Below, in pieces: positions 14,038-31,787 of a stretch of DNA of 64,000 nt. The translations under genes and the position numbers were made by a program. How positions within the stretch are numbered: the stretch's first letter is position 1; every line of letters begins with the position of its first letter. The DNA is from Candidatus Omnitrophota bacterium. GTDB taxonomy: Bacteria > Hinthialibacterota > Hinthialibacteria > Hinthialibacterales > Hinthialibacteraceae. Where the stretch lies: contig QZKN01000097.1 of the NCBI GenBank assembly GCA_003598175.1, forward strand, positions 23,861 through 87,860, given 5' to 3'. Under the pieces are notes generated by a model. The model was not told the DNA's origin. It worked only from the letters and a program-made list of their open reading frames with translations, and did no database searches.

Positions 14038-14097
14038 CGTTGTTTGCTTCTTTCCCTTATAACTCACCTTTCGCAGGGATTTCCCCCTCCCCGTCAA

Positions 14098-14183
14098 CTG
14101 GGCGGGAGTTCTTCGTTAACAAGGCGGGAGTTCTTCATCAACAGGGCAGGAGTTCCTTGTTAACGGAGCGGGAGTATTGATCC
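14098..14183. repeat. Tandem direct repeats of about 22 bp, 3.5 copies
   Basis: GGCGGGAGTTCTTCGTTAACAA / GGCGGGAGTTCTTCATCAACAG / GGCAGGAGTTCCTTGTTAACGG / AGCGGGAGTATTGATCC. The array is flanked by CCCCGTCAAC (14088) and the hairpin ATCCCCCG-TTGA-CGGGGGAT (14179-14198). Confidence 0.6.
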
Positions 14184-14227
14184 CCCGTTGACGGGGGATT
14201 ACAAGGGGGAGGCATATAGGGATTAAT

Positions 14228-14944
14228 TCAGGAACGGATCAAATCCGAGTTTTTGATCCATTCAATGGTTTCGTCGATGGAGTCGGTTATATGGAAAAGG
14301 TTCAAATCTTCCGGCGAAATATTTTTTTCTTCGATTAAGCGGCTTTTGATCCATTCAATCAATTCTTTCCAATATTCCGTGTCGAACAAAATGACCGGAA
14401 AGGATTTTATGCGGCGCGTCTGGATGAGCGTGAGAGACTCGAATAGTTCGTCCAACGTACCGAAACCGCCGGGAAAAATCACGAAGGCAATGGAGTATTT
14501 GACCAGCATGACCTTGCGAATGAAGAAATAGCGGAAGTTCAGGCCGGTAGTGATGTAGGGATTCGGCGTTTGTTCAAGCGGGAGTTCGATGTTAAGGCCG
14601 ACGGAAACGCCCTTTGCCTCGAACGCGCCGCGATTGGCCGCTTCCATGATTCCCGGTCCGCCGCCGGTTACCGTCGCCAATCCTTCGCGGGCGATTCTCT
14701 GGCCGAGTTCGCGGGCTTTTTGATAACGGGGATGGCTTGCGGGCGTACGGGCGGAGCCGAACACCGAAACCGCTTGCGGCATTTTGGCCAATTCCTCGAA
14801 CGATTCGGTGAATTCCGACATGATACGGAACACCCGCCAGATGTCGTCAATACCCATGTAATCGATGAGATATTGGCGTCTGTCCCAATCGCTTATATCC
14901 TCGGGAGGTGAAAGGGGGGTCCAGAGATGAGCGTTATTTTTCAT
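14228..14944 (-). CDS. LOG-family protein (TIGR00730, cytokinin riboside 5'-monophosphate phosphoribohydrolase-like)
   Basis: VFGSARTP...TGGGPGIMEAANRGA...PGGFGTLDELFE is the canonical LOG motif set. Confidence 0.85.
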   Translation of the reverse strand: MKNNAHLWTPLSPPEDISDWDRRQYLIDYMGIDDIWRVFRIMSEFTESFEELAKMPQAVSVFGSARTPASHPRYQKARELGQRIAREGLATVTGGGPGIMEAANRGAFEAKGVSVGLNIELPLEQTPNPYITTGLNFRYFFIRKVMLVKYSIAFVIFPGGFGTLDELFESLTLIQTRRIKSFPVILFDTEYWKELIEWIKSRLIEEKNISPEDLNLFHITDSIDETIEWIKNSDLIRS

Positions 14945-15067
14945 GAATGTGTCCTTATTTGTTGTGAAGAAAGCTTTTATTCTATCGTTTTGAAAATGAA
15001 TTGGCAGTGGGATGGTGGATGGCGCATGGCAAAGACCAGTGAGAGGGGAAGAATAGTTATTCTATTT

Positions 15068-16788: not shown

Positions 16789-18813
16789 TCAATATAATGA
16801 CCATCCACTAACAGCCACCGGCGCCGGACCGATGGCGCGGGTGATGAATTCCAACACAATCGGCGTGCGCACTTCGATAAAATCACGGGATAACTGCGCC
16901 GCTCGGTCCCAATCCGCCGGCGTTTTTCCACGTCCCCATTTTTCGGCTTCTGCCGGGATGGCCGCTCGCACAGCATCCAGCTGTTCGTTCAAGCGCATCG
17001 TCACGTGGTCCTCGCGGAGAGGACCGGCGAGATACTCCTGCAATCGCAGCCAAAAAAATGTCCGGTAATCCTGATTTTGCAGCAATCTGGCAAAGAGCAA
17101 TCCGATCAGTCCGCTGCCCGCGTTTGTCGCGTTTGTCAAGGTGTTTTGGTTGACGAGATAGCCTTGAATTCCGGAGCCGAAGCTATATTCCACATCCCAC
17201 AAAAAAAACTTCCATTTCCCAGTCAGAAATCGTTCGCGGGCGGCGTACCAATTATGATGCGGCCAGTCGTAATTCTGCATCCATACGTTGATGATGATGT
17301 AGGCGGTAAAATTCTCCAGATCGAGTATTTCCTGTAACGATTCATAATTTTGCGGATTCGTCAAATCGTTGCGGGACACCCAATTGCTGAATGTTGTCCA
17401 TTCCTGCATATCACCGTCGCTCACTTCGTTGTCGACAATGACATCCCACAAATCCGGGCCGTAATGCTCTTCGAGAAAATCCTCGTGGATACGCTCGCAG
17501 GGATTGTAAAGCCCCCAATACTCGCCGTTCAGATACAATTCGGCGAATATGCCGTGGCTGGACAGCTGGTTCATATCCAAAAACACGTTGCGAACCGCCT
17601 GATCGCTGACGTAAATGGCGGTTTCCCGCTGCATTTCGCGATCGTATCCCCACGAGTCGTTGAATCCCGCTCGCAAAACCAGCTGATCGAAACGGTGAAC
17701 GTCGGTCGTTGGGAAGAGGGGATAATCCAGCTTGGCCGCCCCGTAATCGGAGCGAAAATACAGGCGGAAAGAGCGTTTGGGAGAACGGGTGCGGGACGCG
17801 CCGCCGTGAATCCGCAGCCCGGCGTTTTCGACGAATTCGCGGTCGCCGTTCCGGTTAAAAAACTCGACGCTTACCGGCCGTTCCCATTCGCGTCCGTGAC
17901 GATCCGAATTTTGATAAATACCTGTGGTTCGATCCCACAAATTCGGCGGATCCGTCGCCAGAGACAGAATCGGCAGCACGATGTCCGGCCGGAGGATATA
18001 CGTATGCGTACCTACATCGCTGGGATAATACTCCTCACGAAACGCCCGCGCGCGGAGCGGGGTGGACCGGGTAATTTGCAGGGGATTTTGTACTATGGTA
18101 TCGGAGGCGGTGGGTATGGAGCCGTCGGTCGTATAACGGATCACGGCGTCCGATTCGTGTGAGGATAGATCAACCGTAAGCGGTTGTTTAAAAACGCCGG
18201 CTTGCGCCGAAAACAAGGGAGCGGAGGCAAATCCCTTCGCGCCCGGTTTACTATTCGATTGGCCCGGCGTCGATTCCAGGAAATAAACCCATTCACCGCC
18301 GCCGTCGGGCTGTCGCCCATAAGAGACATCCCGCCGCTGCGCCGGAAAGGTGAGACTGTCGGCCGCCGTCCCATCTTGTCGGTATAAAGCCAGATATTCT
18401 CCTTCCCGCCGCAATCGGAAGTTCGTGTGGTACGAATTCGGATCGAGAAGATCATAACCGGTCGCCCGGATTAATACAAAACCATTCGTAGGCAGAGTAA
18501 TGGATGGCAAACGCCATTTGCCGGGAGCAAGAGGATCGTCGGTCAATGCATAACCACTTAAATCCATCGCACTGGAACCGGAATTATACAATTCAATCCA
18601 TTCCAGCGAAGTATCGGATTCATCAACAGCCGATGAGGAAGCGAGAAATTCATTGATGACAACTTCCGCGTTGCCACGGAATGAAAAAAAGGAAAGAAAA
18701 AGGATGGAAAGAAAAAATGACATCCTCTGCCCAACAAAAGTCGTCAGGTTCACCACCGCCCTCCACCGGAAAGAATTCAAAAAGAGATCCGTTTTCGAAG
18801 CGAGAGGAGTCAT
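16789..18813 (-). CDS. Lamin-tail-domain plus CotH kinase-family secreted protein
   Basis: LTD motif VINEFLASSS...LEWIELYNSGSSAMDLSGYALTDD is followed by a CotH-like region (RIHGGASR...SFRLYFRSDYG). Confidence 0.75.
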   Translation of the reverse strand: MTPLASKTDLFLNSFRWRAVVNLTTFVGQRMSFFLSILFLSFFSFRGNAEVVINEFLASSSAVDESDTSLEWIELYNSGSSAMDLSGYALTDDPLAPGKWRLPSITLPTNGFVLIRATGYDLLDPNSYHTNFRLRREGEYLALYRQDGTAADSLTFPAQRRDVSYGRQPDGGGEWVYFLESTPGQSNSKPGAKGFASAPLFSAQAGVFKQPLTVDLSSHESDAVIRYTTDGSIPTASDTIVQNPLQITRSTPLRARAFREEYYPSDVGTHTYILRPDIVLPILSLATDPPNLWDRTTGIYQNSDRHGREWERPVSVEFFNRNGDREFVENAGLRIHGGASRTRSPKRSFRLYFRSDYGAAKLDYPLFPTTDVHRFDQLVLRAGFNDSWGYDREMQRETAIYVSDQAVRNVFLDMNQLSSHGIFAELYLNGEYWGLYNPCERIHEDFLEEHYGPDLWDVIVDNEVSDGDMQEWTTFSNWVSRNDLTNPQNYESLQEILDLENFTAYIIINVWMQNYDWPHHNWYAARERFLTGKWKFFLWDVEYSFGSGIQGYLVNQNTLTNATNAGSGLIGLLFARLLQNQDYRTFFWLRLQEYLAGPLREDHVTMRLNEQLDAVRAAIPAEAEKWGRGKTPADWDRAAQLSRDFIEVRTPIVLEFITRAIGPAPVAVSGWSLY

Positions 18814-18887: not shown

Positions 18888-20432
18888 TCAGACGGCATAT
18901 GTTTTTTCACGTTCGGTTCCGGCAATCAGGCGGTTGACGGCATTGAGAAACGCTTTCACGCTGGCGCGCAGGACGTCGGTGTCCGTCCCGCGTCCGATGA
19001 CTTCTCGATCCCCTTTGCGCAGGATGATATTCGCCGATCCCAACGCGTCGGTTCCGGTCGTGACCGCGCCGACGTGATAATCGACCAGTACGGCATCCTC
19101 CATACCCGTCAGTTGCTTGATCACGGAAAAAGCCGCATCCAGTGCGCCCGCGCCCGCCCCGGTCGCCTCCACGATATCGCCATTGGAGCGCAGCCGTACA
19201 TGGGCATTGGGCTTTTGTTGCTTCTCGATGTTGATGCTCAGATCCTCCAGCGAATATTTTCCATAATCAGCAGCGCGGGATTGCTCATCCACGATCGCGA
19301 TGATGTCTTCGTCGAAGACGTTTTTCTTCAAATCCGCCAATTCCTTGAATGAATCGAAGGCTTTTTCCAACGATTCGCCTTCCAGATGGAATCCCAGCTC
19401 TTCCAGGCGTTTGGTAAACGCATGGCGGCCGGAATGCTTGCCCAGCACCATCGAATGGCCGGTCCAGCCGACGGATTGAGGCGACATGATCTCATACGTC
19501 GTCCGCTCCTTCAACATCCCGTCCTGATGAATGCCCGCTTCGTGGGCGAAGGCGTTTGCGCCGACGATGGCCTTGTTCGGCTGCACGCCGATGCCGGTAA
19601 AGCGCGTCAACAGGCGGCTGGTGGGGTAAATCTGTTCGGTGTGAATGTTCGTGTGCACGTCGAAGAAATTCTTTCGCGTTTCGATATTCATCACGATTTC
19701 TTCGAGCGAGGCGTTGCCGGCGCGTTCGCCGATGCCATTGATGGTGCACTCCACCTGCCGCGCGCCGCTGCGAACCGCCGCCAGCGAGTTGGAAACGGCC
19801 AATCCCAAATCGTTGTGGCAATGCACGCTGATGACGGCCTGATGCACATTCTTCACTTTTTCGAAAATGTAAGCGATCAAATCGCCGAATTCCCACGGAT
19901 TTGAATACCCGACCGTGTCGGGTACGTTGATCGTGGCGGCGCCGGCGTCAATCGTCGCTTCGATGACTTCGCAAATGTAATCCCGATCGGTGCGGGCGGC
20001 GTCCTCGGTGGAAAACTCCACGTTTTCGGTGTACCCGCGCGCCCGCTTGACCGCCTTGACGGCGATGTCGCGCACTTCCTTGTTGGTTTTCTTCAATTTC
20101 TTCTCGACGTGAATGTTGCTGGTCGCGATAAAGGTGTGAATGCGCGGCCGGCTGGAATATTGTACTGCTTCCCAGCAGCGGTCGATGTCTTTTTCCATCG
20201 CGCGCGCCAGCCCGCAGATTTGCGGACCCTCAACCTGCTGCGCCACAGCTTTGACCGCCTCGAAATCGCCGGGCGACGAAATGGGAAAGCCCGCTTCGAT
20301 GACGTCCACGCCCAACCGTTTCAATTGAAACGCAAATTCCAGCTTCTCCTGCAGATTCATACTGAATCCGGGGGATTGCTCGCCGTCTCTCAAGGTGGTA
20401 TCGAAAATAATGATTTTTTTATCGTCGTTCAT
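18888..20432 (-). CDS. leuA: 2-isopropylmalate synthase
   Basis: [22 protein letters not shown]... with an HxH metal site, 514 aa including the C-terminal regulatory domain. A citramalate synthase paralogue cannot be excluded. Confidence 0.85.
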
Positions 20433-20649: not shown

Positions 20650-20927
20650 ACCAATAAAAAACCTCGCCCCATGGTTCAGGGGCGAGGTCGGTTTTTCGAT
20701 CCCGCGGTACCACCCTGCTTCAGCGTTCGTTTCCAGGAACGCCCTTGTTTGCGCATGATCACGGTTGCGAACCGGCTTCAACTAGTGATTCGATGTGAAC
20801 GTTCGCGGAAGCGACTCCAAGGCGAGTTCGGCGCTTCGAAATACCGGTTCGCACCACCCACCGGCTCTCTCCGATTTCGAGATGACGCCTACTGCTCCTC
20901 TTCACGGTCTTTGGTGATAAAATTTTA
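20650..20927 (-). ncRNA. T-box riboswitch leader controlling leuA, probably Leu-specific
   Basis: The minus strand shows the canonical T-box sequence AGGGTGGTACCGCGG (20716-20702). Next comes the terminator hairpin GACCTCGCCCC-tgaaccat-GGGGCGAGGT plus TTTTTT (20689-20650). A candidate specifier reads GAA-CUC-G (Leu). The leader is about 270 nt from the predicted transcription start. Confidence 0.6.
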
Positions 20928-20934
20928 GTTAATA

Positions 20935-20962
20935 ATTATAACCGAAACGATTCGGTTGTCAA
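20935..20962 (-). promoter_or_regulatory. Sigma-70-type promoter for the T-box leader
   Basis: On the minus strand, TTGACA (20962-20957), a 16 nt spacer, then TATAAT (20940-20935). Confidence 0.5.
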
Positions 20963-21379
20963 TGCATGATTTACTCTTTGTGAAAACACGAACATGTATC
21001 CGGCGACTATGTCTCCTTCCCCAACCTATTGATTTACCGGAAAATGCCTTTTAGTCGCTTAGATTGTTACAAGTGAACTACTCCGACTACATCTTGGGTT
21101 TTAGCCTCCGGAGGTCGCTTCTTTGACACATGGACGCTGGGAGTGAGATTTGTAGGGGGGAATATTACGCGTGGAAAAAAGGAGATGCCGCCGATAGTTG
21201 TGGTTCAATATGATGGGTCGGAGGAGATGGAGTTTTGGATGGAAGAATGAAGTCTGAATCGGGAGGGCAGGATGATAAGGATATTCAAGATAAGGTAACG
21301 CCGTGGTCTCGACTTCAGGATGCCGGTAAGAAGCCGGAGGGAAAGTACGAAGCATCACGAAAGAAAGGAGACGGTGAAC

Positions 21380-21673
21380 ATGAAGTACACCGTGATTCTC
21401 ACGGAAGAACAGGGCCGTTTTCAAGCAACGGTTGCCGGATTACCGGATTGTCACGTGAAGGCGAATACACGACTGGATGCGCTCAACACCATTCGTGACG
21501 CAATCAACCGATTGATCGGCCGTAGTGAGATTGTCCAACTCGAGGTGCCAACGAACCCGAAATTCTCGAACCTTCATTCCGATGTTCCCTGGGAATGGTT
21601 TGGGGCTTTTAAAGAAGATCCGACTTGGGAAACATTGTTCGATGACATCGAGCGCCAGCGAAGTACCGATTAA
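21380..21673 (+). CDS. HicB-like (UPF0150 fold) antitoxin with a C-terminal extension
   Basis: MKYTVILTEEQGRFQATVAGLPDCHVKANTRLDALNTIRDAI. It is immediately followed by a PIN toxin gene. Confidence 0.55.
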   Translation: MKYTVILTEEQGRFQATVAGLPDCHVKANTRLDALNTIRDAINRLIGRSEIVQLEVPTNPKFSNLHSDVPWEWFGAFKEDPTWETLFDDIERQRSTD

Positions 21674-21688
21674 ATTGAAAGATCGCAT

Positions 21689-22117
21689 ATGTATCTATGG
21701 GATTCCAACATTTTGAGGCATTATGGGGAGGGACGCCCCCATATTCGACTCTATCTGGAGCATGTGAGTTGGTCTGAAATTGCGATTCCATCCGTTGTGG
21801 TTGCAGAAGTGTTGCGAGGGCGATGTGATTTTGCTCTAAAAGCCACCCCGGCGTTAGCAGTATACGCTCATGAGATGTTGATGAAAACAAAAAAGTTTTT
21901 GGAACAATTTACGATTTGTGTTTTTGATGAAGATTGTTCAAAAGCATTACACGAACGGAAACAACGTCACAAGGCTCATAAGCGTTATGCCGACATGCTT
22001 ATTGCTGCCATGGTGCAAGCGGGAAACCATGTCATTGTTACGCGAAACGTAGAAGATTTTGCCGTGCTATTACCCAAGAATCGAATTATCAATTGGATTG
22101 ATGAAAAACCGAAATGA
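21689..22117 (+). CDS. vapC: PIN-domain toxin (VapC family)
   Basis: MYLWDSNILRHY...VVAEV...IVTRNVEDF. 142 aa. Confidence 0.75.
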   Translation: MYLWDSNILRHYGEGRPHIRLYLEHVSWSEIAIPSVVVAEVLRGRCDFALKATPALAVYAHEMLMKTKKFLEQFTICVFDEDCSKALHERKQRHKAHKRYADMLIAAMVQAGNHVIVTRNVEDFAVLLPKNRIINWIDEKPK

Positions 22118-22231
22118 GTTTTGGAAGCTGAATTAGTTTTGTAGGGTGGGCTCGATTCAGCCTACCATTCGGATTTGGGATACTATGGGTGGGTTACGCT
22201 TCGCTTTGAGCCCATCCTATGCAGCTATAAA

Positions 22232-22429
22232 TTAATCAATCCAACGCCATGTAATATCCCTTATATCATAAATAATAATTCCCATAATAATCAAAGTCAA
22301 AATAAATCCGACCGAATTCACCTCGGAAACAGAAGCATCAGGCTTTTTAAAGCCTAAAACAATCGCAAAAAAAGATAAAACACAAACCAAACGAAAAATC
22401 CGTGGCCGTCTCGACACATATTTATCCAA
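22232..22429 (-). CDS. Small putative membrane protein in an AT-rich segment
   Basis: Hydrophobic segments (LVCVLSFFAIVLG, FILTLIIMGIIIY). The start is non-ATG. The surrounding GC is far below the rest of the window. Confidence 0.25.
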   Translation of the reverse strand: MDKYVSRRPRIFRLVCVLSFFAIVLGFKKPDASVSEVNSVGFILTLIIMGIIIYDIRDITWRWID

Positions 22430-22488
22430 ACGTGCAACTCTATAAATTAATAATCCGATGAATGTAAAAAATAAAGCGCCCGAATTAC

Positions 22489-22665
22489 CTGCTAAACTAA
22501 AAAAAATGAAATAAGAATAAATAATGCAGATATGAAACTTAAGATGTAACGTAATTTGGGGAATTTTGGTTCCGGTTCCAATCCACTATAAAGGTGACGT
22601 CTTTCATATTCCTCTGGTGATTCTTTATGACTATAATAGTTCCCATTTTTTGCTAAATAAGACAT
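22489..22665 (-). CDS. Small ORF (58 aa) with a hydrophobic C-terminus in the AT-rich segment
   Basis: GGAGGTAATC then ATG. Sequence MSYLAKNGNYYSHKESPEEYERRHLYSGLEPEPKFPKLRYILSFISALFILISFFLV. Not in the ORF track because it is under 60 aa. Confidence 0.25.
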
Positions 22666-23067
22666 GATTACCTCCTTTGGGTTCTACTTCCACTGGAAAC
22701 GCTTTACATTTTAAAAAAGCTCGTCCTATGAATGTAGAGTAGATAGAAGTAAAATTCCTTCGTATGAAATAATAACTCTTTGCCGATTTTAGGGAATAAA
22801 CCCAGTGACTAGTATGTACATCAAGATCGTATCTGGCGTCATCCTTTTTTCCTTGCATCTCGCAATGAACGTTCCTCTACTTTAGTGGTCAAGACGTATG
22901 CCGTCAATACGCATGCCGTCAATACGTAGTTATACCCAACGTATAATCGTTGATCAACAATCATACGACATGGAAAAACCCGTTCGGATTCATGCCGAAC
23001 AATTGAAACCCCATTATCACGGAAAAACCCAAAAACCATTCGGTTTTCTCTCGAATGGTAACATGGT

Positions 23068-23172
23068 TGTAGCATGGATTTTTTGATGTTTCCGGAATGA
23101 AGCGTAAGTCTAATGAAATCAAAGTCGGGGTGAGAGGATTTGAACCTCCGGCCCACTGCTCCCAAAGCAGTT
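23068..23172 (-). repeat. att-like repeat: a 48 bp 3' fragment of tRNA-Pro (23125-23172) plus a conserved 55 bp flank, called module A here
   Basis: Positions 23125-23172 are identical to 31526-31573, which is the tRNA from its 3' end through the anticodon stem. Positions 23068-23122 nearly match 31057-31112, and the 3' part recurs at 31504-31525. Confidence 0.8.
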
Positions 23173-23353
23173 TACCCCCCCTACATATGGTATCACGGAT
23201 TAACACGGTTAAACGTAAATCCCTCATTTTATTCATTCTTTACTTGCATGGTCTACTTTACAAGCATCATGATATACCATATACTGTGTTGACTTGGTGT
23301 TGACTTGAGAGGGTATGGCGACAAATATCTCAAGTTTCATAGGAGGCGACGGC

Positions 23354-24571
23354 ATGAGTAAAGCGGCACGAAAACGTTTGCGGTTGACGAAGTCGATTAT
23401 CGACAAATTGGAGTATCCGGCGTTGCAATCGGGAAATCCGGATGTTCCGATTTACCCGTCATGCATTTATTGGGATACGGAAATCCGTTCCTTCGCCGTC
23501 CGTGTTTTCCCATCCGGCAAAAAATCCTACATTCTCGATTATCGCTGCAGAGGGCGGCATCGGCGGATGACGATAGGTTCATGTTCGGTTTTGACTCTCC
23601 ACCAAGCTCGAGAACGGGTAAGAAAACTGATGATTCAAATTTTAGACGGGGTTGATCCCTTGGAAGTCCGGGAATCACAGCGGAAGGTTTTGACCGTTAC
23701 GGAATTTTCGAATTTATTCATCGAACGGTACGCAAAGAAGTTTCGAAAATCATGGAAGGAAGACGCGCGGAGGCTCCATAAACACGTTATTCCGGCGTTC
23801 GGCTCGATCAGGCTTGATGCTCTGCAACGCGGCGACATATCGGCGTTTCATGCGGAAATCGGTGAATCATCCCCGGTTGAAGCGAATCGGGTAACGGAAC
23901 TTTTCCGGCGCATGTTTCACGTCGCGATGGAATGGGGATATTTGCCGTCCACGTTCGAGAATCCGGCGAAGGGCGTCAAAAAGTTTCCGGAAAAATCGCG
24001 GGAACGTGTGTTGACGGAAGAGGAAATCATCGCAATCGGGCAGGCGTTGATCGAAGAACAGAATGTTTATGCGCGAACGGCGATCACGCTTGCACTGCAC
24101 TTGGGTAACCGTATCGGAGAAATCCTCAAAGCGAAGTGGCGGGATGTGAATCTGAAAAATCGAACCTGGCTGTTTCCGGATACGAAAAGCGGCAAACAGC
24201 ACACTTTGCCGTTGACGGAGGAAACCGTGGGGCTACTCGAAAGCATACCCCGTGATTCATCAACAAAGGAAATTTTTCCGATCAAGAGCGTTCGCAAGGC
24301 ATGGGAGAGAATACGAAAAAAAACCGGATTGGAGAATATTCGCATTCACGATTTAAGGCGTTCGGCGGCAAGCATGATGGTGGACGATGGAATCTCGCTG
24401 CACATCGTGTCCAAGGTTCTGAACCATTCGAGTTTATCGATAACCAGCGGGGTTTATGCGCATGTCGGGATGGATCCGGTTGAAGACGCCTTACAAAAAC
24501 ATTCGAAGAAAATCGTTTCTTTGTTTCAACCGGCAACCGATGAAACAGGCGGTAAGGAAAACGTTTCTTGA
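23354..24571 (+). CDS. int: Tyrosine-type site-specific integrase
   Basis: An AGGAGG RBS sits before the ATG at 23354. The catalytic region has ...RIHDLRRSAASMM...H...Y in the C-terminal part. It is adjacent to the partial tRNA copy. Confidence 0.85.
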   Translation: MSKAARKRLRLTKSIIDKLEYPALQSGNPDVPIYPSCIYWDTEIRSFAVRVFPSGKKSYILDYRCRGRHRRMTIGSCSVLTLHQARERVRKLMIQILDGVDPLEVRESQRKVLTVTEFSNLFIERYAKKFRKSWKEDARRLHKHVIPAFGSIRLDALQRGDISAFHAEIGESSPVEANRVTELFRRMFHVAMEWGYLPSTFENPAKGVKKFPEKSRERVLTEEEIIAIGQALIEEQNVYARTAITLALHLGNRIGEILKAKWRDVNLKNRTWLFPDTKSGKQHTLPLTEETVGLLESIPRDSSTKEIFPIKSVRKAWERIRKKTGLENIRIHDLRRSAASMMVDDGISLHIVSKVLNHSSLSITSGVYAHVGMDPVEDALQKHSKKIVSLFQPATDETGGKENVS

Positions 24572-24612
24572 TGAAATGACCAGGAAAAAAGAAAGGAAGG
24601 AAGGAAGGAATC

Positions 24613-24963
24613 ATGGAAAAAACAATGTCACAAGCGGAAATCGAACGGCTGTTTGCCGATGAACCGGCGGGCGCAACGGCGGTGATGGATGACTTTCCGG
24701 ATGGAATCCGGGCGGCGGTCACGGGCGCGAAGGAATCGGCGACGGTCACGGCGGCGGCGGCAATCCCAGAAATCCTGAAAATCTTGTCGACCGTTGACGG
24801 GAAATTTCATCCGTCAATTTTCGCGGCGGTCACGGCGATTCAACGCACAGCGGCAGGCGATAGCGTCACGGCAATCGGCGATCAATTGAATGAACTTGCT
24901 TCCCGGCGATCACGGGAAACAAGGGCGAACGGCAAGCAAAGGCGGCGATGGTGGGGAAGGTGA
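24613..24963 (+). CDS. Hypothetical protein (116 aa) in the int-alpA interval
   Basis: An Ala/Thr-rich protein ending in a basic tail RRSRETRANGKQRRRWWGR. Polypurine RBS. No known domain. Confidence 0.45.
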   Translation: MEKTMSQAEIERLFADEPAGATAVMDDFPDGIRAAVTGAKESATVTAAAAIPEILKILSTVDGKFHPSIFAAVTAIQRTAAGDSVTAIGDQLNELASRRSRETRANGKQRRRWWGR

Positions 24964-24994
24964 AAAATCCCCTCAACGCCAAAAGGATGAAACC

Positions 24995-25867
24995 ATGTCC
25001 CGAAAAAAAAAGGTAACCGACTTGCCAACTTGCCGATGCGAAGAAAAAATCATTTGGGATGACGGCAAAGGAAACCAGAGGTTTGAATGCAGTTATTCAA
25101 CCGATATAAGATTCTCTCAAAAGGTCAAAAACCAATTGATCCTACATGCCGGAATGGGCGCATATGAGGCGGAAAAGTTTTTAAACGATTATCCGAAACG
25201 AAGCAAAAACATGTTAAAATGCGTCAAAGGAAATCTTGATGATTATCACCTGCATTGGGCAAAAATTCGGGATGAACAAATTGAGGCAAGAGACAAATTG
25301 CAGAAAGCGGATGTGGAATTTTCATCAGCGAACAGGCCGTTTTTGTGTAACCAATATTCACTATGTTATGATCCTTCGGATGACGGCGATTTCATGAAAC
25401 AGTTTGCCGAAAAGCGAAACGCGATTGTAGCCTGTCACGGGGAAGTGGCCAAATTATTCACTGAACCTTTTTTAGATTTGGGAAAAATCGGATTATCATT
25501 GATCGATTCAATTCAAGCAGAACAGGATTTTTTGCAATACTTCAACAATCGGCGCGTGCAGCAACTGACCAAAGACTTACAAGGCCGACCTTCCAAAGGC
25601 GACGTAAACATCACACTAAAAAACCTGGCGCAAACATTCATACAATTCCACCAATGGAAAAAAAATAGAAAATGCAAGAAAGCGATTCGTGAGCATTGCG
25701 TTCGATTCGTTGCCGTTGCACTTGCAGCGGCAATGATCGAAGTTCCCGAATCAGGAAATATTGCGGAAAGTCACGCACTGCCAAATGCTCACGATAACCG
25801 TCTTGTTAAACGAATTTCATCCGCATACGACTTCATTCAACGAACCCCCAAACCCCTCTCAAAGTAA
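24995..25867 (+). CDS. Hypothetical protein (290 aa) in the int-alpA interval
   Basis: AAGGA RBS. The N-terminal Cys cluster is CRCEEK...FEC. No recognisable domain. The longer ORF 24890.. in the track was rejected as the start. Confidence 0.5.
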   Translation: MSRKKKVTDLPTCRCEEKIIWDDGKGNQRFECSYSTDIRFSQKVKNQLILHAGMGAYEAEKFLNDYPKRSKNMLKCVKGNLDDYHLHWAKIRDEQIEARDKLQKADVEFSSANRPFLCNQYSLCYDPSDDGDFMKQFAEKRNAIVACHGEVAKLFTEPFLDLGKIGLSLIDSIQAEQDFLQYFNNRRVQQLTKDLQGRPSKGDVNITLKNLAQTFIQFHQWKKNRKCKKAIREHCVRFVAVALAAAMIEVPESGNIAESHALPNAHDNRLVKRISSAYDFIQRTPKPLSK

Positions 25868-26011
25868 AAAAAATCATCTTTTTTACCCGTTGTAACTCCT
25901 TGATTTCATTGGAGAACGCAAAAAGTCACGTCAAAAAAGAGGCGACTTTTTGCGCAGGCGGGAAAAAGGTTCTGTGACAATCCATCTTAAAAAAGAAAGC
26001 GAGCTTCAACA

Positions 26012-26269
26012 ATGGATTATCACGAAATGATTAACGTTCCGCTCCACTTGGATCCCGATGCTTTGCTCAGCGAAAGGCAAGCGGCGGAGTTTCTTGGTTT
26101 CACAATTCGAGCGCTTCAATCCTGGAGGCAAAAAGGCAACGGTCCGAAATTCGTCAAAATTTCGGCAAGGGCGATTAAATATAGGCGGCGGGATTTGGTT
26201 GAATGGTGCGAGGGAAAAATTCGAAAATCCACATCCGATAGCGGCGGCGCGGGGGGGGATGAATCATGA
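26012..26269 (+). CDS. alpA: AlpA/Xis-like HTH (HTH_17) excisionase or regulator
   Basis: LLSERQAAEFLGFTIRALQSWRQKGNGPKFVKISARAIKYRRRDLVEW. Its stop overlaps the next gene (ATGA). Confidence 0.7.
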   Translation: MDYHEMINVPLHLDPDALLSERQAAEFLGFTIRALQSWRQKGNGPKFVKISARAIKYRRRDLVEWCEGKIRKSTSDSGGAGGDES

Positions 26270-27975
26270 GCACGGCGCTTGCGGTGAAGTTTAATCCAGA
26301 CTTCGAGCGGCAAATTCTTTCTTCAATCCTTTATGATCCGTCAAACGTCGAACGCTGTGGCGCTTTGTGCGGAGCGGATTTTTGCAATAAGACATTGGGA
26401 AAAATTTACCAGGCGGCTTGCGATATTTATCGAGACGGCGGCATCGTAGATGATAGTCTTATCATTGATAGATGTGGGGACGTGCACATAAATAAAGCTT
26501 CATTGTATGCGCTTCGCGACGAATATGTAACCGATTCCAATCTCGATTTTTGGGTTTCGCAAGTACAGGATTACGGCAGGCGGCTGGCGATAGGTAAATT
26601 ATTTGAGTCGGCGGCGAAGCGCATTGAACAAGCGGAAAATCTATCTGATTTCACGACAGATGTTATCGGAAAATTGCAGGCAATCAGCGGCGTAAATCCA
26701 ACAGATTCGACGGAAAAAACCGCCTGGCCGGAACCGTTGCCGCCAGAGGCTTACATTGGATTACTTGGTGAAATAACCAAATTCATAGAACCGGAAACCG
26801 AAGCGGATCCGGCGGGGATTTTGGCTCAACTGTTGGTAGTGTTTGGTAACGCAATTGGAAGGAATCCGTATTTTTTCGTGGAATCGGATTTCCATTACGC
26901 AAACGAATTTTTATGCTTAGTCGGTGAGACGTCAACGGCGGGGAAAGGCACTTCTTGGGGGTATATTCGGCGATTGTTTAAGGACGCGCTGCCCGACTAT
27001 TTTAAAAACAGAGTTGAGCCTGGTCTGAGCAGCGGTGAGGGGCTAATTCACAAGGTTCGAGATGCAACCGAAGTAGCGGGCGAAATCACGGATCCGGGAA
27101 TGGCTGACAAACGGTTGCTTGTGACAGAGGGGGAATTTGCATCACTCTTGCAGGCGATGAACCGGCCCGGAAATCGAGTTTCCACGATTATAAGAGAAGC
27201 CTGGGATTACGGGGATTTGGGGACGATGACTCGAAACAATCCTCAAAGGGCGACGGGCGCGCACATAAGCATTATCACGCATATCACATTTGAGGAGTTA
27301 AGAAAAACTTTTAAGGAGACGGACTGTCTTAACGGTTTCGGTAACCGTTTTTTGTGGGTTTGTGTAAAAAGGCAGAGATGCCTTCCGGAAGGCGGCAACG
27401 TTGATTTTTCGCGGCGTCAACAATACATTGAAAAGTTGCAACGTGCGGTAGAATTTGCGCAAGGACATTCGGCTGAGGTGCCTTTTGACATTCATGCGCG
27501 TGAACTTTGGCATGCAATCTATCCAAAACTTACGCAGGCGCGAGCGGGACTATCGGGCGCGATGTTGGCGCGATCTGCCCCCCACGTTCGCCGCCTGGCG
27601 CTGATTTATGCCTTGAGTGATTTCTCTTCCGTTGTTGAGGAAAAGCATTTGCAAGCATCACTAGAATTTTGGGAATATGTCGAACAATCGGTTGAATATA
27701 TTTTTGGCGATCATTACGGCAACCGAACCGCGGAAAAAATCATCAACGCACTTCGAGATAGTCCCGAAGGCCTAAGCGAAACGGCAATTTCGCGAGACGT
27801 CTTCGGCGGGAATAAAAATTACACAGAAATCAATCATGCGATAGAATCATTAAAAGCGGCTGGTAAAATTCGAACAGAAAAAAGAAGAACAAGCGAACGT
27901 GGGCGGGCGGCAACTATCGTTTTACGCTCGGATAGGTGTACGAAAGAAACGAAAGAAACGAAAGAAATGAAATAA
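26266..27975 (+). CDS. Replication protein: DnaB-helicase N-terminal-like domain fused to a DUF3987 primase-associated domain
   Basis: An N-terminal DnaB-N-like region (ILSSILYDP...LGKIYQAACDIY) and a central DUF3987-like region (YFFVESDFHYANEFLCLVGETSTAGKGTSWGY). The C-terminal TKETKETKEMK comes from a 9 bp tandem repeat at 27940-27972. Confidence 0.7.
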   Translation: MSTALAVKFNPDFERQILSSILYDPSNVERCGALCGADFCNKTLGKIYQAACDIYRDGGIVDDSLIIDRCGDVHINKASLYALRDEYVTDSNLDFWVSQVQDYGRRLAIGKLFESAAKRIEQAENLSDFTTDVIGKLQAISGVNPTDSTEKTAWPEPLPPEAYIGLLGEITKFIEPETEADPAGILAQLLVVFGNAIGRNPYFFVESDFHYANEFLCLVGETSTAGKGTSWGYIRRLFKDALPDYFKNRVEPGLSSGEGLIHKVRDATEVAGEITDPGMADKRLLVTEGEFASLLQAMNRPGNRVSTIIREAWDYGDLGTMTRNNPQRATGAHISIITHITFEELRKTFKETDCLNGFGNRFLWVCVKRQRCLPEGGNVDFSRRQQYIEKLQRAVEFAQGHSAEVPFDIHARELWHAIYPKLTQARAGLSGAMLARSAPHVRRLALIYALSDFSSVVEEKHLQASLEFWEYVEQSVEYIFGDHYGNRTAEKIINALRDSPEGLSETAISRDVFGGNKNYTEINHAIESLKAAGKIRTEKRRTSERGRAATIVLRSDRCTKETKETKEMK

Positions 27976-27987
27976 GGGTGTTGTTTT

Positions 27988-28398
27988 TTGAACAGATGGG
28001 GAATTAATTCGTTTCTTTCGTTTAATTCGTACCATGCGGAGGGAAAAATGAGCGGGAAATATTTTGCTTTGGCAAAGGAAACGCTTGAAAGAATAAGAGC
28101 GAATGAATCGAAACTTATTCATTCGAATGATTCGGTTATTCAACTGCAACCGGCGACGCGGGTTTATCCGAAACCTGAACCGTTCATCCCGCCATTCTAT
28201 GGCCGTGTGCGAGACCGTAGGGCGAAGGAATTGATCGATTCCGGCATTGAACCGGCGGCGGCGAAGGAACAGGCGCAAACGGAAATCATCGACTTTTATG
28301 AAAAGATTCAACGCGGGGAAACAATTAAATCGATTCATTGGTACCCGGCAAATGAGGCCGGGCTTGTTCTTTGCATTCCGGAAAGGGCGAAGAAATGA
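27988..28398 (+). CDS. Hypothetical protein (element cargo)
   Basis: ORF downstream of the primase gene. The likely true start is the internal MSGKYFALAKE. No domain recognised. Confidence 0.4.
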   Translation: MNRWGINSFLSFNSYHAEGKMSGKYFALAKETLERIRANESKLIHSNDSVIQLQPATRVYPKPEPFIPPFYGRVRDRRAKELIDSGIEPAAAKEQAQTEIIDFYEKIQRGETIKSIHWYPANEAGLVLCIPERAKK

Positions 28399-28427
28399 CG
28401 GAAAATGTAACGTTTTGGGACACTTAA

Positions 28428-28670
28428 ATGCAAAACAGTGAAGGACTTAAACAACAGGATACCCCGGTAGGCCGGTTAAACTCGATTTCAGCCGTTCGCA
28501 AAGAGATGGTTCGCGTTTATCGCGGCACAGTTTCCGGAAAAATCGAAGCGGAACGGGCGACAAAATTGATATGGATTCTCTGTCAGGTTCGCGATTCCAT
28601 TGAACTTGAGGCTGTTGAACCGGCAATCGAACGGCTGGAAAAACTGTTGACTGAAGGCCGATCAAGATAA
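28428..28670 (+). CDS. Hypothetical small protein (80 aa, element cargo)
   Basis: Tightly spaced in a three-gene series. No domain recognised. Confidence 0.4.
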   Translation: MQNSEGLKQQDTPVGRLNSISAVRKEMVRVYRGTVSGKIEAERATKLIWILCQVRDSIELEAVEPAIERLEKLLTEGRSR

Positions 28671-28681
28671 AGGCGGGAATC

Positions 28682-29050
28682 ATGCGAGCAATTTTACGGC
28701 GGATCTTAAAAATCGAATCATGTTTAGCGAAGCGAACGCAACCGAAGGATGATGGCGCAGCGAAGAAAAAACTTCTTGAAGTGGCGCAGCAAAAAATCGA
28801 GATACTTTGCAAGTTGCATGAGGATGGTGTTGCGATTAACCCCCGGCGGGAATCCTTCGCAACCCTCATGCTTCACTTCCTTGCGTTCACAGTGGAATCC
28901 ATCCCGGAAACCATCAAGGATGAAGTCAATCGGCGATTACAGAACCGTGGCGCGGAGCCGATCAATTTCAAAACCATCGACAATGAAACGGCGTTTTTGT
29001 CGATGGTTAGAAAATGGATTGCAACGCAATCTATGGCGGCGGTTAAATAA
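28682..29050 (+). CDS. Hypothetical small protein (122 aa, element cargo)
   Basis: Begins 12 nt after the previous gene. No domain recognised. Confidence 0.4.
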   Translation: MRAILRRILKIESCLAKRTQPKDDGAAKKKLLEVAQQKIEILCKLHEDGVAINPRRESFATLMLHFLAFTVESIPETIKDEVNRRLQNRGAEPINFKTIDNETAFLSMVRKWIATQSMAAVK

Positions 29051-29091
29051 TGCTCACCACGGGCTTATATGGGTGTTTTAATTGAAATAAA

Positions 29092-30597
29092 TCATTCATG
29101 AAATCGCCATTGGTTTACAGCGGTATCGTCTGGATCGAATTCACGAATAAGTCGAAAGCCAATCCCTTGCCTGATTTGATCTGAATCGGAATGTTCCCAA
29201 AAATATCCAAAATCTATATTATGCAATGGTGATGTTGCGCTTTCTCCACAAATCGTGTATGGACGATCAGAAAAATATGGCCAGTAGTTGGAATCATTAT
29301 CAGTATTGAAACACCATTCTGAAACGTTCCCCCATGTATCAAATAAGTTCCAAGGATTTGGTAACTTGGTTCCAACTTCATGCAAATAGAAATCTGAATG
29401 AAGCCAAGCATACGCTTCAATTGGTAAATTGTTGATATTAAAAGAATCATCGAAAAAAAATTTGGTTGTTAGAGTGTTTTGAACAGGCACACCTCCACGA
29501 AAAGCATACTCCCATTCCTCTATTGTTGGTAAACGAAATTTACCCAATCCTAAAACATTCAAACGAGTTATAAATTCAAAACACATTTTTCTGCTTACAT
29601 TATAAACAGGATAATTATCTTTTATACCATAAATTGCTACTAAATTCTCTGGTATAAAATCAATTTCTTGTTTATTAAATATTGTTTTCCATTGAGCAAA
29701 AGTAACTTCATATTTGCCTATGTAATAGTCATTTGGTATAGATATCAATATTTCATTCAAATTTGACCTACTTCCTGTCATTCGAGTAAAAGTTCCAGCA
29801 TGAATCAATACCATCTCAAGCGGCGATACTCCATACGGAAGGCCGGGAAGAGCAATCGTTATTTCTTTATGTGGACGTAGGGCGATATTTAATTCCTCAG
29901 TGGTTGGATTTGTCAAGATTTTATTTTTTTGAAAGTAGCCATCTTTATAAATAGACAAAATGTGATCACCATGTAATATTCTCAATGAGAACGATCCTGA
30001 AGAATCAGTCATGGTCGAAATTCCCGTTCGCAGTATTTCGACTTTTGCATTTTTAATCGGTTCATAAGTTTTGTAATTATAAACGATTCCATATACAAAG
30101 CCGGGAGTCGGAGTTATTGTGGGAGTATGGCTTGGGGTATAGGTCATCGTCGGTGTGAATGTATTTGTCGGAGTTCGAGTCGGAGTAGGTGCTCTCGTAT
30201 TGGACGGCGTTATCGTTAGTGTTGGAGTTCGTGTCGGAGTTGCAGTATTCGTTGAAGTTGGTATTATTTCTGGAATTTGTAATGGAATCATACGAATATT
30301 CAATTCAATATTCTCATTTATTTCTTTGGTTGACTCAAACGTTCGATATCCATCAGCTTCAACCTTTATCACATACGTTCCAGGCAACGGCAATCCAATT
30401 TCATAAAATCCATCTGTCGCGCTTTGAATGGTAATGTCTCCAACTGTTATCAGAGCACCATAGACGGGAATGTCATTGAATAAGGAAAGGACTCTTCCAG
30501 AAATAACGATGTCAGCGGAAGTTTGATTGATAATCACGGTAAATAGTAGTGGGAAGAACGCTGTATTTTTCATCAATTGGTTACTTTCCTTTATCAA
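29092..30597 (-). CDS. Secreted protein with two carboxypeptidase-regulatory-like domains, a Pro/Thr-rich linker and a C-terminal FGE/SUMF1 (sulfatase-modifying-factor) domain
   Basis: Signal peptide. GRVLSLFNDIPVYGALITVGD and GIVYNYKTYEPIKNAKVEIL look like CarbopepD_reg domains. The linker is TPTRTPTLTITPSNTRAPTPTRTPTNTFTPT. The FGE-like region has RLPTIEEWEYAFRGG. Confidence 0.65.
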   Translation of the reverse strand: MIKESNQLMKNTAFFPLLFTVIINQTSADIVISGRVLSLFNDIPVYGALITVGDITIQSATDGFYEIGLPLPGTYVIKVEADGYRTFESTKEINENIELNIRMIPLQIPEIIPTSTNTATPTRTPTLTITPSNTRAPTPTRTPTNTFTPTMTYTPSHTPTITPTPGFVYGIVYNYKTYEPIKNAKVEILRTGISTMTDSSGSFSLRILHGDHILSIYKDGYFQKNKILTNPTTEELNIALRPHKEITIALPGLPYGVSPLEMVLIHAGTFTRMTGSRSNLNEILISIPNDYYIGKYEVTFAQWKTIFNKQEIDFIPENLVAIYGIKDNYPVYNVSRKMCFEFITRLNVLGLGKFRLPTIEEWEYAFRGGVPVQNTLTTKFFFDDSFNINNLPIEAYAWLHSDFYLHEVGTKLPNPWNLFDTWGNVSEWCFNTDNDSNYWPYFSDRPYTICGESATSPLHNIDFGYFWEHSDSDQIRQGIGFRLIREFDPDDTAVNQWRFHE

Positions 30598-31056
30598 TAA
30601 TATTACTCAATCGCTTCCTGTCATGAATAACAAAAAAACGAATATCTGATGGTAAATTAAAATGATTCGCCATATAGGGGAGAGTTCTAAAAGGCCGTGG
30701 GGAAAGAAAATCCGAATCAATTCAAGAGGTCGAATTTCATGTTACGGGGAAGAGTTGCCGACGGTGGACGTACCGTTTGTCAGGCGTTCCTTTACGTTCG
30801 GCGGTTCGTATCGGATACCCGGTGGTGAGACTTTTCCAAGTCAAGCAATATAAAGCACGTCTCCCCGCAAAGGGCAGGCGTGAAAACCTGTTCCCTCGAC
30901 GTGTGGCCATGGGAAAAAAAACATGCCTTAGAATCGATTTGCGATTTAATTTTCTCGTAATAAAATGAGTGATTGAAGATTGCGTTCGGCGGGCCGAACT
31001 TCGCGGCGGCGATTGGTCCGAAAACCTGCCTTTTTTCTCTCTGTTGGTAGCACTGT

Positions 31057-31135
31057 GGTAGCATGGATTTTTTTGATGTTTTCGGAATGAAGCGTAAGTC
31101 TAATGAAATCAATGTGTGTTGAGATGGACTCGAAC
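31057..31135 (-). repeat. Internal att-like module: a second copy of flank module A plus a 24 bp tRNA-3'-end-like fragment
   Basis: Positions 31057-31112 nearly match 23068-23122. The next 24 bp read on the minus strand as GGTTCGAGTCCATCTCAACACACA (a T-loop and acceptor-like end), but no full cloverleaf can be drawn. Confidence 0.5.
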
Positions 31136-31525
31136 CAATGACCCTCTGATAGATTATCAGAGGGCATACGTTTTGACGACCGACGACGCGGCGACCGGGT
31201 TGACAAGATGGGGCGGCGTTTCATCCTTCCATCGACCGGCGGCAGGAAAAAACATCAAACAGCAGGAAACAGCCTTCGTTTTTGTTCCCCGTGCATACTC
31301 AACGCATACTTGAGAAAACCCCGGCGTTCGTAAGTCTAAATATTCGAGGATGTTAAAAAATAAGGCGATTTGATAGGCAATCAGACGACATGAAAAAACC
31401 CGTTCGGATTCGTGGATATTAGATCAATAATCCGAAAATCGGCTCTTTTTTTTGGTGTTGACTTGGTGTTGACTTGAGAAAATCCGTTAAAAATCGAAGG
31501 AAACGTAAGTCTAATGAAATCAAAG

Positions 31526-31599
31526 TCGGGGTGAGAGGATTTGAACCTCCGGCCCACTGCTCCCAAAGCAGTTGCGCTACCAGGCTGCGCTACACCCCG
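31526..31599 (-). tRNA. tRNA-Pro (anticodon TGG)
   Basis: The minus-strand sense reads CGGGGTG-TA-GCGC-AGCCTGGTA-GCGC-A-ACTGC-TTTGGGA-GCAGT-GGGCC-GGAGG-TTCAAAT-CCTCT-CACCCCG-A. All four stems pair, the anticodon loop is TT-TGG-GA, and the length is 74 nt without an encoded CCA. Confidence 0.85.
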
Positions 31600-31787
31600 C
31601 CGTTTCTTCTTCTTACGATTCAGCAGAAATATTATAACGCATGATCCCTTCCGTACAATCCATCCGGTAAACGAAATCGTGTCCTCACGCTGCGCATTCC
31701 GGCGTTTCATGGAATCCGGTTGTTATAATTCTCACTAACGATTTACCTTGAACATCTACCACACCGATTTTGAGAGAGGAACGTCCC

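Follow-up and report, generated by a model that had tools for sequence, protein, structure and literature searches.

The window analysed here is a 64,000-nucleotide (64-kb) stretch of a 112.8-kb metagenome contig of the Joint Genome Institute (JGI), which is also deposited at NCBI as a Candidatus Omnitrophota metagenome-assembled genome; the closest orthologues of the gene flanking the locus include that of Candidatus Hinthialibacter, the type of a separate candidate phylum. ARAGORN and Rfam agree on a single tRNA gene in the window, tRNA-Pro(TGG), and beside it lies a block of DNA bounded by two copies of a direct repeat that contains the 3' part of this gene. The block encodes a tyrosine integrase, a small helix-turn-helix (HTH) protein, a replicative helicase, five open reading frames (ORFs) to which no family could be assigned, and a protein with an FGE-sulfatase domain. 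In our view the block, which we call the island, is likely to be a site-specific integrative element of 8.4 kb that belongs to the genomic-island or integrative-replicon kind and resides in the 3' part of tRNA-Pro(TGG). Its boundaries are the following.

23095 to 23172, no strand: attL, the left copy of the 78-nt repeat, which Rfam scores as a truncated tRNA (31.6 bits).
31496 to 31573: attR, the right copy of the 78-nt repeat, formed by the 3' part of the intact tRNA-Pro and a 29-nt trailer.
31525 to 31599, minus strand: tRNA-Pro(TGG), intact, the integration target (ARAGORN; Rfam, 67 bits).

A repeat search of the window returned the two copies with 76 of 78 positions identical and a start-to-start distance of 8,401 bp. 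Each comprises the 3' 49 nt of tRNA-Pro and the 29 nt that follow its 3' end, and the identity breaks off sharply on both sides; in shuffled sequence, no chance match to a 23-mer from the repeat is expected. The guanine-cytosine (GC) content of the block between the repeats is 45.0%, against 51.3% in the remaining window, and none of the other 8.4-kb stretches of the window (50.1-53.1%) is as low.

The surroundings of the tRNA could be compared with two related genomes. A search of the GTDB species representatives with the flank protein gave best matches of at most 52% identity and no close empty site, an exact-protein look-up of the flank gene returned the source contig alone, and a protein search recovered orthologues at 72% identity in locus L092 and at 63% in locus L094. 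Both of these loci keep a tRNA-Pro(TGG), its 5' half identical to that of the window, on the opposite strand just upstream of a gene for a DUF255 thioredoxin-like protein, as found to the right of the tRNA in the window, and neither contains a homologue of any island protein. In L092 the trailer is unrelated, and a WCX-domain gene and a transposase are present. The base composition, together with the maintenance of the tRNA-Pro/DUF255 neighbourhood elsewhere without the island genes, supports the view that the block is foreign to the chromosome. The island shows several features by which tRNA islands are recognised: a tRNA-derived repeat, an intact recombinase inside, atypical GC content, and absence from related genomes (at 63-72% flank identity). 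In L094, the region downstream of the orthologous tRNA-Pro (4346-7878) carries AAA_15/AAA_21 and RloB genes, likely a defence pair, and genes for CBM9 proteins, with no integrase. Given these other genes beside the orthologous tRNA of L094, this tRNA seems to serve as a hotspot for islands in other lineages too.

A sequence-only reading of the window had proposed an integrative element at tRNA-Pro bracketed by tRNA-containing direct repeats, and had named two observations that would speak against it: absence of the repeat, and conserved synteny of these genes across unrelated genomes. The repeat is real, although its dimensions needed revision (78 nt rather than about 70, with 49 rather than 48 nt of tRNA, beginning at 23095 rather than 23103), and the island genes are absent from the L092 and L094 loci. 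The comparison with empty sites that it called for is provided by these two closest genomes, which keep tRNA-Pro and the DUF255 gene without the island and are approximate empty sites at 63-72% identity. The proposal of an integrative element at tRNA-Pro is borne out by the tRNA-derived repeat, the low GC content, and the absence from relatives, as well as by the integrase catalytic residues, the paired 11-mers, and the integrase relatives found both integrated and as a circle, all described below.

The integration module and its candidate sites are the following.

23257 to 23285, plus strand: sigma-70-like promoter, TTTACA-17-TATACT, 10/12 by consensus match only, directly 5' of the arm repeats and the integrase gene.
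23286 to 23307, plus strand: tandem GTGTTGACTTG x2, candidate arm-type site at the integrase-proximal end.
23315 to 24571, plus strand: tyrosine integrase of the P4 type (Arm-DNA-bind_3, SAM-like, and catalytic domains), from profile matches.
26012 to 26269, plus strand: HTH_17 protein of 85 aa, excisionase/AlpA-type, from profile matches.
31455 to 31476, plus strand: tandem GTGTTGACTTG x2, candidate arm-type site at the tRNA-proximal end.

The integrase lies at the tRNA-distal end of the island and points inward. It scores 97 bits against PF00589 and 51 bits against PF13356, its probable start is M14 at 23354, in agreement with the NCBI gene model, and an alignment with five relatives shows that the catalytic residues R266, K291, H345, R348, H371, and Y381 are all kept. 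The HTH_17 protein matches its Pfam model at 28.6 bits (cutoff 27) and PHROG 66, "excisionase and transcriptional regulator", at 8e-8; the Phage_AlpA model gives no match. Its stop codon overlaps the start of the helicase gene (ATGA), and the two genes are translationally coupled.

Exactly four copies of the 11-mer GTGTTGACTTG are present in the 64 kb, making up the two tandem pairs, against 0.57 occurrences expected; none of 100 shuffles reaches that number. The left pair sits between the promoter-like site and the integrase start, the right pair 19 nt inside attR, and the 25-nt blocks that contain them (31455-31479 and 23286-23310) are identical at 25 of 25 positions. Joining of the ends predicts attP (31340-31573 plus 23173-23400), which reads ...CTCCCAAAGCAGTT joined to TACCCCCCCTACATATGGTATCACGG... 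with GTGTTGACTTGGTGTTGACTTGAGAAAATCC before it, and attB (22900-23172 plus 31574-31700), which reads ...TTCCGGAATGAAGCGTAAGTC...AAGCAGTT joined to GCGCTACCAGGCTGCG. After excision both pairs would flank the attP core, as expected for arm-type sites that the N-terminal domain of the integrase reads; they are candidate arm sites.

The closest integrase relatives show 50-55% identity, and two of them, in loci L082 and L084 (52-53%), bear directly on mobility. L082 contains, at 9733-14968, a 5.1-kb island bounded by a repeat of 107 nt, the right copy of which forms the 3' part of a tRNA-Arg(TCT). The integrase stands at its distal end and is followed by an HTH_17 gene and then by a replication module of another type, with genes for an HTH_36 protein and a PC4-like protein and with iterons. 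Where the window has its 11-mers, at both positions, L082 has tandem GGTAGCTCA-type repeats. L084 is a 6,653-bp contig with a perfect 1,266-bp terminal overlap, which implies a 5,387-bp circle or a tandem array, and it encodes an integrase, an HTH_17 protein, an HTH_36 protein with iterons, and a PC4-like protein. The region upstream of its integrase gene aligns with the joined right and left ends of the L082 island without a break (92.7% over 413 nt). Because this alignment runs across the predicted L082 junction, L084 represents, on the evidence of its sequence, a close relative of the L082 island in its attP form, and the two make a matched integrated and excised pair from two different assemblies.

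The island in the window resembles L082 and L084 in its integrase and HTH_17 module, the tRNA-distal position of the integrase, the tandem short repeats inside both ends, and a repeat that runs past the tRNA 3' end with a related flank motif inside. It differs from them in the target, which is tRNA-Arg(TCT) in their case, in their size of 5.1-5.4 kb, and in their possession of an HTH_36 protein with iterons and a PC4-like protein instead of a helicase. A more distant relative, L085 (integrase 40% identical), combines a DUF3987 helicase with an archaeo-eukaryotic primase (AEP) and has a tandem CCTGGAGACTT x2 next to a tRNA fragment. Integrase and HTH_17 protein alone are common to the island, L082, L084, and L085, which suggests that the family keeps its integration and excision module and swaps replication and cargo modules. 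The integrase clade is common to phages and small islands, as L095 (IMGVR_UViG_3300035670_001467), whose integrase is 38% identical, is a temperate phage with terS, terL, portal, major head, Erf, and exonuclease genes.

The replication module consists of a helicase gene and a repeat region at its stop codon.

26266 to 27975, plus strand: 569-aa replicative helicase comprising a DnaB N-terminal domain, a DUF3987/superfamily 6 (SF6) MCM-like AAA+ core, and a C-terminal winged helix.
27938 to 28032, no strand: candidate replication origin at the helicase stop codon, with inverted iterons.

Residues 10-102 of the helicase match DnaB_N over the whole Pfam model (E = 8e-8), and the N-terminus matches the DnaB models of NCBIfam and PHROGs as well. 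Over the C-terminal 70%, thousands of metagenomic proteins show 47-50% identity; the majority of them carry PF13148 (DUF3987), and fusions to Prim-Pol, PriCT, zf-CHC2, Toprim, or DUF3854 domains are frequent. Pfam's own model of DUF3987 gives no direct match, even at E<=1, so the family assignment draws on the homologues and the fold. From an alignment of 55 homologues, AlphaFold predicts the structure of residues 150-558 with a predicted local distance difference test score (pLDDT) above 90, and all of the top 50 Foldseek matches of this model in the PDB are MCM subunits (probability 1.00). The Walker A motif GETSTAGKGTS and the Walker B-like motif LLVTEGE are present in the sequence, so that the protein, as modelled, shows the features of DUF3987/SF6 helicases: an MCM-like AAA+ core, Walker motifs, and a C-terminal winged helix. 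DUF3987 has been assigned to SF6 with a C-terminal winged helix and proposed to be a replicative helicase (PMC4889955); experiments on a PriCT-DUF3987 protein of a tRNA-integrated, integrase-bearing element in Seonamhaeicola have demonstrated 5'-3' helicase activity and binding to its primase through the N-terminal domain region (PMC11724360). As for AgaPH, 5'-3' polarity would be expected of the island helicase. We also considered an SF3-like helicase and rejected it, as the literature and the fold search point to an SF6/MCM-like enzyme. No primase domain was detected in the helicase, which has no space for one, and no primase gene was found elsewhere in the island. We infer that the DnaB_N-like domain occupies the place held by a PriCT or primase domain in relatives and recruits the host primase or replisome. 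Collections of cultured phages and plasmids contain just distant DUF3987 matches, at 29.5% identity or less.

In the candidate origin, three exact and one degenerate copy of the 9-mer ACGAAAGAA at 27940-27975 are opposed by inverted copies at 28004-28030; the two arms (25 nt) are 92% complementary and the spacer is T-rich. This iteron region is the most plausible replication origin. Staphylococcus aureus pathogenicity islands (SaPIs) likewise have iterons beside a rep gene.

The remaining genes of the island are the five ORFs and a cargo gene.

24613 to 24963, plus strand: ORF of 116 aa without detectable family.
24995 to 25867, plus strand: ORFan of 290 aa (longest ORF form from 24890).
28048 to 28398, plus strand: ORF of 116 aa (longest ORF form from 27988).
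28428 to 28670, plus strand: ORF of 80 aa.
28682 to 29050, plus strand: ORF of 122 aa.
29092 to 30573, minus strand: cargo protein of 493 aa with an FGE-sulfatase domain (GC content 36.6%).

All ORFs of the island are uninterrupted. For the five ORFs listed first, Pfam and PHROGs give only noise at E<=10 and no family. An exhaustive HMMER search of 1.84 billion representative proteins with the 325-aa form of the ORFan returned only the self-match, and its single-sequence AlphaFold model (pLDDT 36) is unusable. The cargo protein has a hydrophobic, signal-like N-terminus, two CarboxypepD_reg domains with a Pro/Thr-rich linker, and the FGE-sulfatase domain, and is probably secreted or exposed at the surface. 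It has a weak PDB sequence match to 5aoh, an entry named spore coat protein CotH; elsewhere in the window, the gene at 16789-18813 (minus strand) codes for a large protein that combines a CotH kinase domain with Lamin-tail and chitobiase-C domains. PADLOC identified no defence system among the island proteins.

The gene list of the sequence-only reading (integrase, two unknown genes, alpA, a DnaB-N/DUF3987 primase-helicase, three small unknown genes, and an FGE-domain protein) is largely correct. The assignment of alpA holds for the excisionase/AlpA-type fold family, through HTH_17, and not for the Phage_AlpA model itself; of the primase-helicase, DnaB_N and the helicase remain, while the primase has to be given up in favour of an MCM-like SF6 helicase without a primase fold.

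Two further end-like segments, which that reading had overlooked, were found at the same site.

22950 to 23094, no strand: right end of an older related element, just outside attL, assigned by its likeness to the right end of the island.
31018 to 31162, no strand: fossil end of another relative inside the island, a degenerate third copy of the end.

Outside attL, the 45 nt at 22950-22994 are 87% identical to 31370-31414 and form a terminator-like hairpin on the tRNA strand, and tandem 11-mers TGGTAACATGG TTGTAGCATGG at 23056-23077 lie in the position matching that of GTGTTGACTTG x2 in the island. By analogy with tycheposons, we read this segment as the end of an older relative displaced from the tRNA. 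Left of 22950 there is no further tRNA-Pro fragment or arm-repeat copy that could bound the older element. The fossil end has tandem 11-mers TGGTAGCACTG TGGTAGCATGG and the flank motif, followed by a core that is tRNA-like without being a tRNA and that contains a 10-bp hairpin (CCCTCTGATA/TATCAGAGGG). Across the 11-mers and the flank motif, its identity to the copy left of attL is about 96%, and it diverges precisely where the tRNA would start. We rejected 31085-31162 as a second tRNA: ARAGORN makes no call, Rfam gives nothing at E<=1, and the T-stem would have just three pairs. These copies suggest that the tRNA-Pro site has been used repeatedly.

In tRNA orientation, the flank motif reads TTGATTTCATTAGACTTACG. 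Its exact 20-mer CGTAAGTCTAATGAAATCAA occurs in the window at 31503-31522, 23102-23121, and 31092-31111, and a metagenome scan with the 20-nt motif located it at 13740-13759 of L086 and 10477-10496 of L087, which are near-identical to each other and unrelated to the window contig. It lies 1-2 nt past the 3' end of the tRNA, which is tRNA-Pro in the window and, at a distance of 1 nt, tRNA-Arg(TCT) in L086 and L087. No integrase is present in the 0.3-3.8 kb available from these two loci, so that neither represents attP or attB of the island. A diverged form of the motif occurs in L082, L084, and L094, and none was found in L092. The motif thus seems to travel with these elements and not with a given tRNA; it could be a site for the integrase or a host factor, or a trailer-processing signal. 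Directly downstream of the tRNA-Arg(TCT) and flank motif of L087, positions 10733-12177 hold tandem arrays of 150-170-nt repeats (up to 99% identical).

To the left of the island, the 2.2-kb segment 20915-23094 has a low GC content (41.6%) and contains a HicB-like ORF (21320-21673) and a VapC/PIN toxin gene (21689-22117), as well as a 15-nt tandem repeat, GTCAATACGCATGCC x2.6, at 22888-22926. This remnant probably represents what is left, after decay, of the body of an older island that used the same tRNA. Beyond it, the backbone of the chromosome starts again with a full-length T-box leader (20675-20914, minus strand; 110.8 bits against a gathering score of 93) preceding a leuA-like 2-isopropylmalate synthase gene (18888-20432). 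An Omnitrophota/Hinthialibacter-like host lies outside the groups in which T-boxes are usually reported.

We compared the island with described classes of small integrative elements. Its architecture fits closely that of the tycheposons of Prochlorococcus (bioRxiv 10.1101/2020.12.28.424599), which are likewise flanked by a full and a partial tRNA, with Pro-tgg and Arg-tct among their targets, carry at one end a tyrosine recombinase that points inward, along with cargo genes and a small module for replication, and in which successive integrations displace older elements from the tRNA and leave remnants. Tycheposons are, however, defined by a lineage-specific recombinase and hallmark profiles, whereas the likeness here is one of architecture only, and the host of the island is not a marine cyanobacterium. 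The PICMIs (minimalist chromosomal islands that phages can induce) of Vibrionaceae (PMC10803314) share with the island an integrase, an AlpA-type HTH protein, a DUF3987-family replication protein, a few ORFs of no assigned function, small size, and the lack of capsid-remodelling and packaging genes. They are located beside fis, and the island in tRNA-Pro, between the DUF255 gene and the low-GC segment followed by leuA; the host phylum is not that of Vibrionaceae; the replication protein of the island has DnaB_N and no primase-associated domain; and the PICMI gene iolg overlaps the integrase gene, while the next ORF of the island begins 41 nt past the integrase stop. The island is, moreover, known from sequence alone and not from a helper phage or virions. 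Two of the four mandatory PICMI markers, PF00589 and an AlpA-type HTH (PF05930 or PF12728), are present; the primase marker PF13148/PF19263 (DUF5906) is represented only indirectly, by DUF3987 homologues at 47-50% identity and the MCM-like fold; and the fis location is absent.

The VEIMEs (integrative mobile elements encapsidated in virions; PMC9618062) are also small, with an integrase, a primase/helicase, AlpA, many unknown genes, and no capsid genes, but are defined by concatemers in virus particles, whereas the island is known from its genes. The Seonamhaeicola element (integrase/PrimPol/PriCT-DUF3987; PMC11724360) is an integrase-bounded tRNA island with a DUF3987 helicase module as well; it differs in having its own AEP primase-polymerase and a prokaryotic Argonaute (pAgo), where the island has DnaB_N instead of PriCT, no primase, and other cargo. 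Finally, the P4-like satellites and the PICIs (chromosomal islands that phages can induce) recognised by SatelliteFinder (PMC10085698) resemble the island in the P4-type integrase (Arm-DNA-bind_3), the AlpA-type HTH protein, and a replication protein with an adjacent candidate iteron origin. Unlike them, the island lacks psu, delta, sid, epsilon, terS, ppi, and a capsid-morphogenesis component, and its helicase is of the DUF3987/SF6 kind without a primase. Of the seven core components of Type A P4-like satellites, integrase and AlpA are found, and psu-delta-sid, epsilon, and the alpha primase-helicase are not; of the five PICI core components, at most three are found (integrase, AlpA-type, and replication), against at least four required, including packaging or capsid morphogenesis. 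SatelliteFinder treats only PICI Types A and B as reliable and sets Type C aside: integrase, AlpA, and primase alone may represent other mobile elements or random aggregates (PMC10085698). We file the island with the small tRNA-targeting integrative elements that carry a replication module, and regard it as PICMI-, VEIME-, or tycheposon-like in its working.

These comparisons bear on the sequence-only proposal of a P4/PICI-like satellite, in which the order of int, alpA, and primase was taken as the core layout of satellites. The order is present, but it is common to satellites, tycheposons, and other islands and so is not diagnostic, and with the primase wrongly assigned and no hijacking or capsid gene in the island the proposal is not sustained. 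The absence of capsid and terminase genes, which the same reading had reported, was confirmed with Pfam, PHROGs, and NCBIfam: none of psu, delta, sid, epsilon, terS, ppi, cpm, or capsid families was found, even at E<=10. Because the same PHROGs library recognises terS, terL, portal, and major head in L095, the lack of matches is not a failure of sensitivity. That the island is a minimalist satellite of phages, similar in type to PICMIs or VEIMEs, is nonetheless an explanation to which we give a real, if clearly minor, chance. A helper phage would then induce excision through the AlpA-like protein, the helicase would replicate the element, packaging would probably be as concatemers into unmodified helper capsids, and one or more of the five unknown ORFs would mediate induction or interference; we allot the same minor chance to this scheme as a whole. 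The three PICMI core functions do occur in the same order (integrase, AlpA-type HTH, DUF3987-family protein), PF12728 is allowed by the PICMI model, a size of 8.4 kb without capsid-remodelling genes fits the PICMI and VEIME descriptions, a true temperate phage (L095) has an integrase of the same clade at 38% identity, and the L084 circle is compatible with a concatemer or an episome. Yet no phage-derived or hijacking gene was found with the three libraries, no helper phage is known, and the fourth mandatory PICMI marker, a position beside fis, is lacking. IMG/VR holds no relatives of the helicase or the cargo protein, its nearest integrase is the one at 38%, and a 23-mer of the flank and a 28-mer of the fossil core are absent from it. 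The authors of SatelliteFinder call the three-gene set non-diagnostic (PMC10085698), and the integrase/HTH_17/DUF3987 module also occurs in non-satellite elements such as the pAgo-carrying one (PMC11724360).

Fixation of a formerly mobile island that no longer excises is improbable. Excision is seen for relatives only, decayed ends lie at the site (22950-23094 and 31018-31162), and the neighbouring 20915-23094 resembles a decayed island with its HicB-like/VapC pair and 41.6% GC; but the repeats (76/78) and arm blocks (25/25) are nearly or fully identical, the integrase catalytic residues are complete, all ORFs are uninterrupted, and the Walker A motif and the Walker B-like motif are both retained in the helicase. 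It is very improbable that the island is an integrative mobilisable element moved by a conjugative system in the same cell, by way of an oriT or relaxase that escaped recognition. Many such elements are small, integrase-bearing, and tRNA-targeting without transfer genes, and one of the five ORFs without assigned function could be a novel relaxase. However, Pfam, NCBIfam, and PHROGs gave no match to relaxase, coupling-protein, or type IV secretion families, the 290-aa ORFan is without any relatives, unlike relaxases, and the helicase and iterons suggest theta or fork-type replication and not nick-initiated transfer. A chance repeat or assembly artefact would be conceivable in a product of metagenome assembly, but we give it practically no weight: the repeat is 78 nt long with 97% identity, falls exactly at the 3' part of the tRNA beside an integrase, is contained in an identical contig at both JGI and NCBI, and has counterparts of like architecture in independent assemblies. 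Several observations weigh against our preferred reading of a site-specific integrative element. No second copy of the exact element was found, its relatives sharing integrase and HTH_17 only; excision is shown for relatives only (the L084 circle corresponding to the joined L082 ends); and the comparison genomes are distant (63-72% amino-acid identity), hence approximate empty sites. The N-terminal domain of the helicase is poorly modelled (pLDDT 35-74), so that the DnaB_N assignment draws on HMM matches only, and the nearest relatives of this protein are about 50% identical and cover just the C-terminal 70%. The arm sites and the origin are candidates named solely from position and repetition. 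The extension of the repeat to 29 nt past the tRNA and the fossil end inside the island imply a history more complex than one clean insertion.

For the integrative element, we propose that the catalytic domain of the integrase binds the core while its Arm-DNA-bind_3 domain binds the GTGTTGACTTG repeats, and that attL and attR recombine within the 78-nt identity, with the HTH_17 protein aiding as excisionase or regulator. Excision would yield an 8,401-bp circle and restore tRNA-Pro, into which the circle could re-integrate. The circle would replicate from the iteron region with its own MCM-like helicase, and, because this helicase has no primase, its DnaB_N-like domain would most likely recruit the host DnaG primase or another part of the replisome. 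No particle, packaging, or conjugation genes are encoded, so transfer between cells would have to use an outside vehicle (phage capsids, vesicles, conjugative helpers, or transformation); dependence on a helper for transfer is thus reasonably inferred. The FGE-domain surface protein would be cargo.

It is also conceivable, if unlikely, that the island represents an undescribed helper-dependent minimalist family of Hinthialibacterota/Omnitrophota-like hosts, combining modular ends, interchangeable replication modules, and, in this member, a primase-less helicase that captures DnaG. If so, the modular end would consist of tandem 11-bp arm repeats, the conserved motif of about 20 nt, and a swappable tRNA 3' segment; such ends would allow switching among tRNA-Pro, tRNA-Arg, and other targets, with the fossil end as the trace of a switch, and the DnaB N-terminal domain of the MCM-like helicase would capture host DnaG.

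We regard the island as a clean example from an under-sampled phylum, fairly ordinary in kind and not a new type of system. It shows that the shortcut from int, alpA, and primase to a satellite is unreliable. Small islands of integrase and replication genes at tRNA genes, such as PICMIs, VEIMEs, and tycheposons, are recognised as major gene shuttles, and the described cases come nearly all from Proteobacteria, Firmicutes, and marine cyanobacteria; the island shows the same design in a barely sampled candidate phylum, and its relatives supply a matched integrated and circular pair. The conserved motif and tandem repeats appear to move with different tRNA segments, and the DnaB_N-MCM-like helicase, having no primase of its own, may borrow that of the host.

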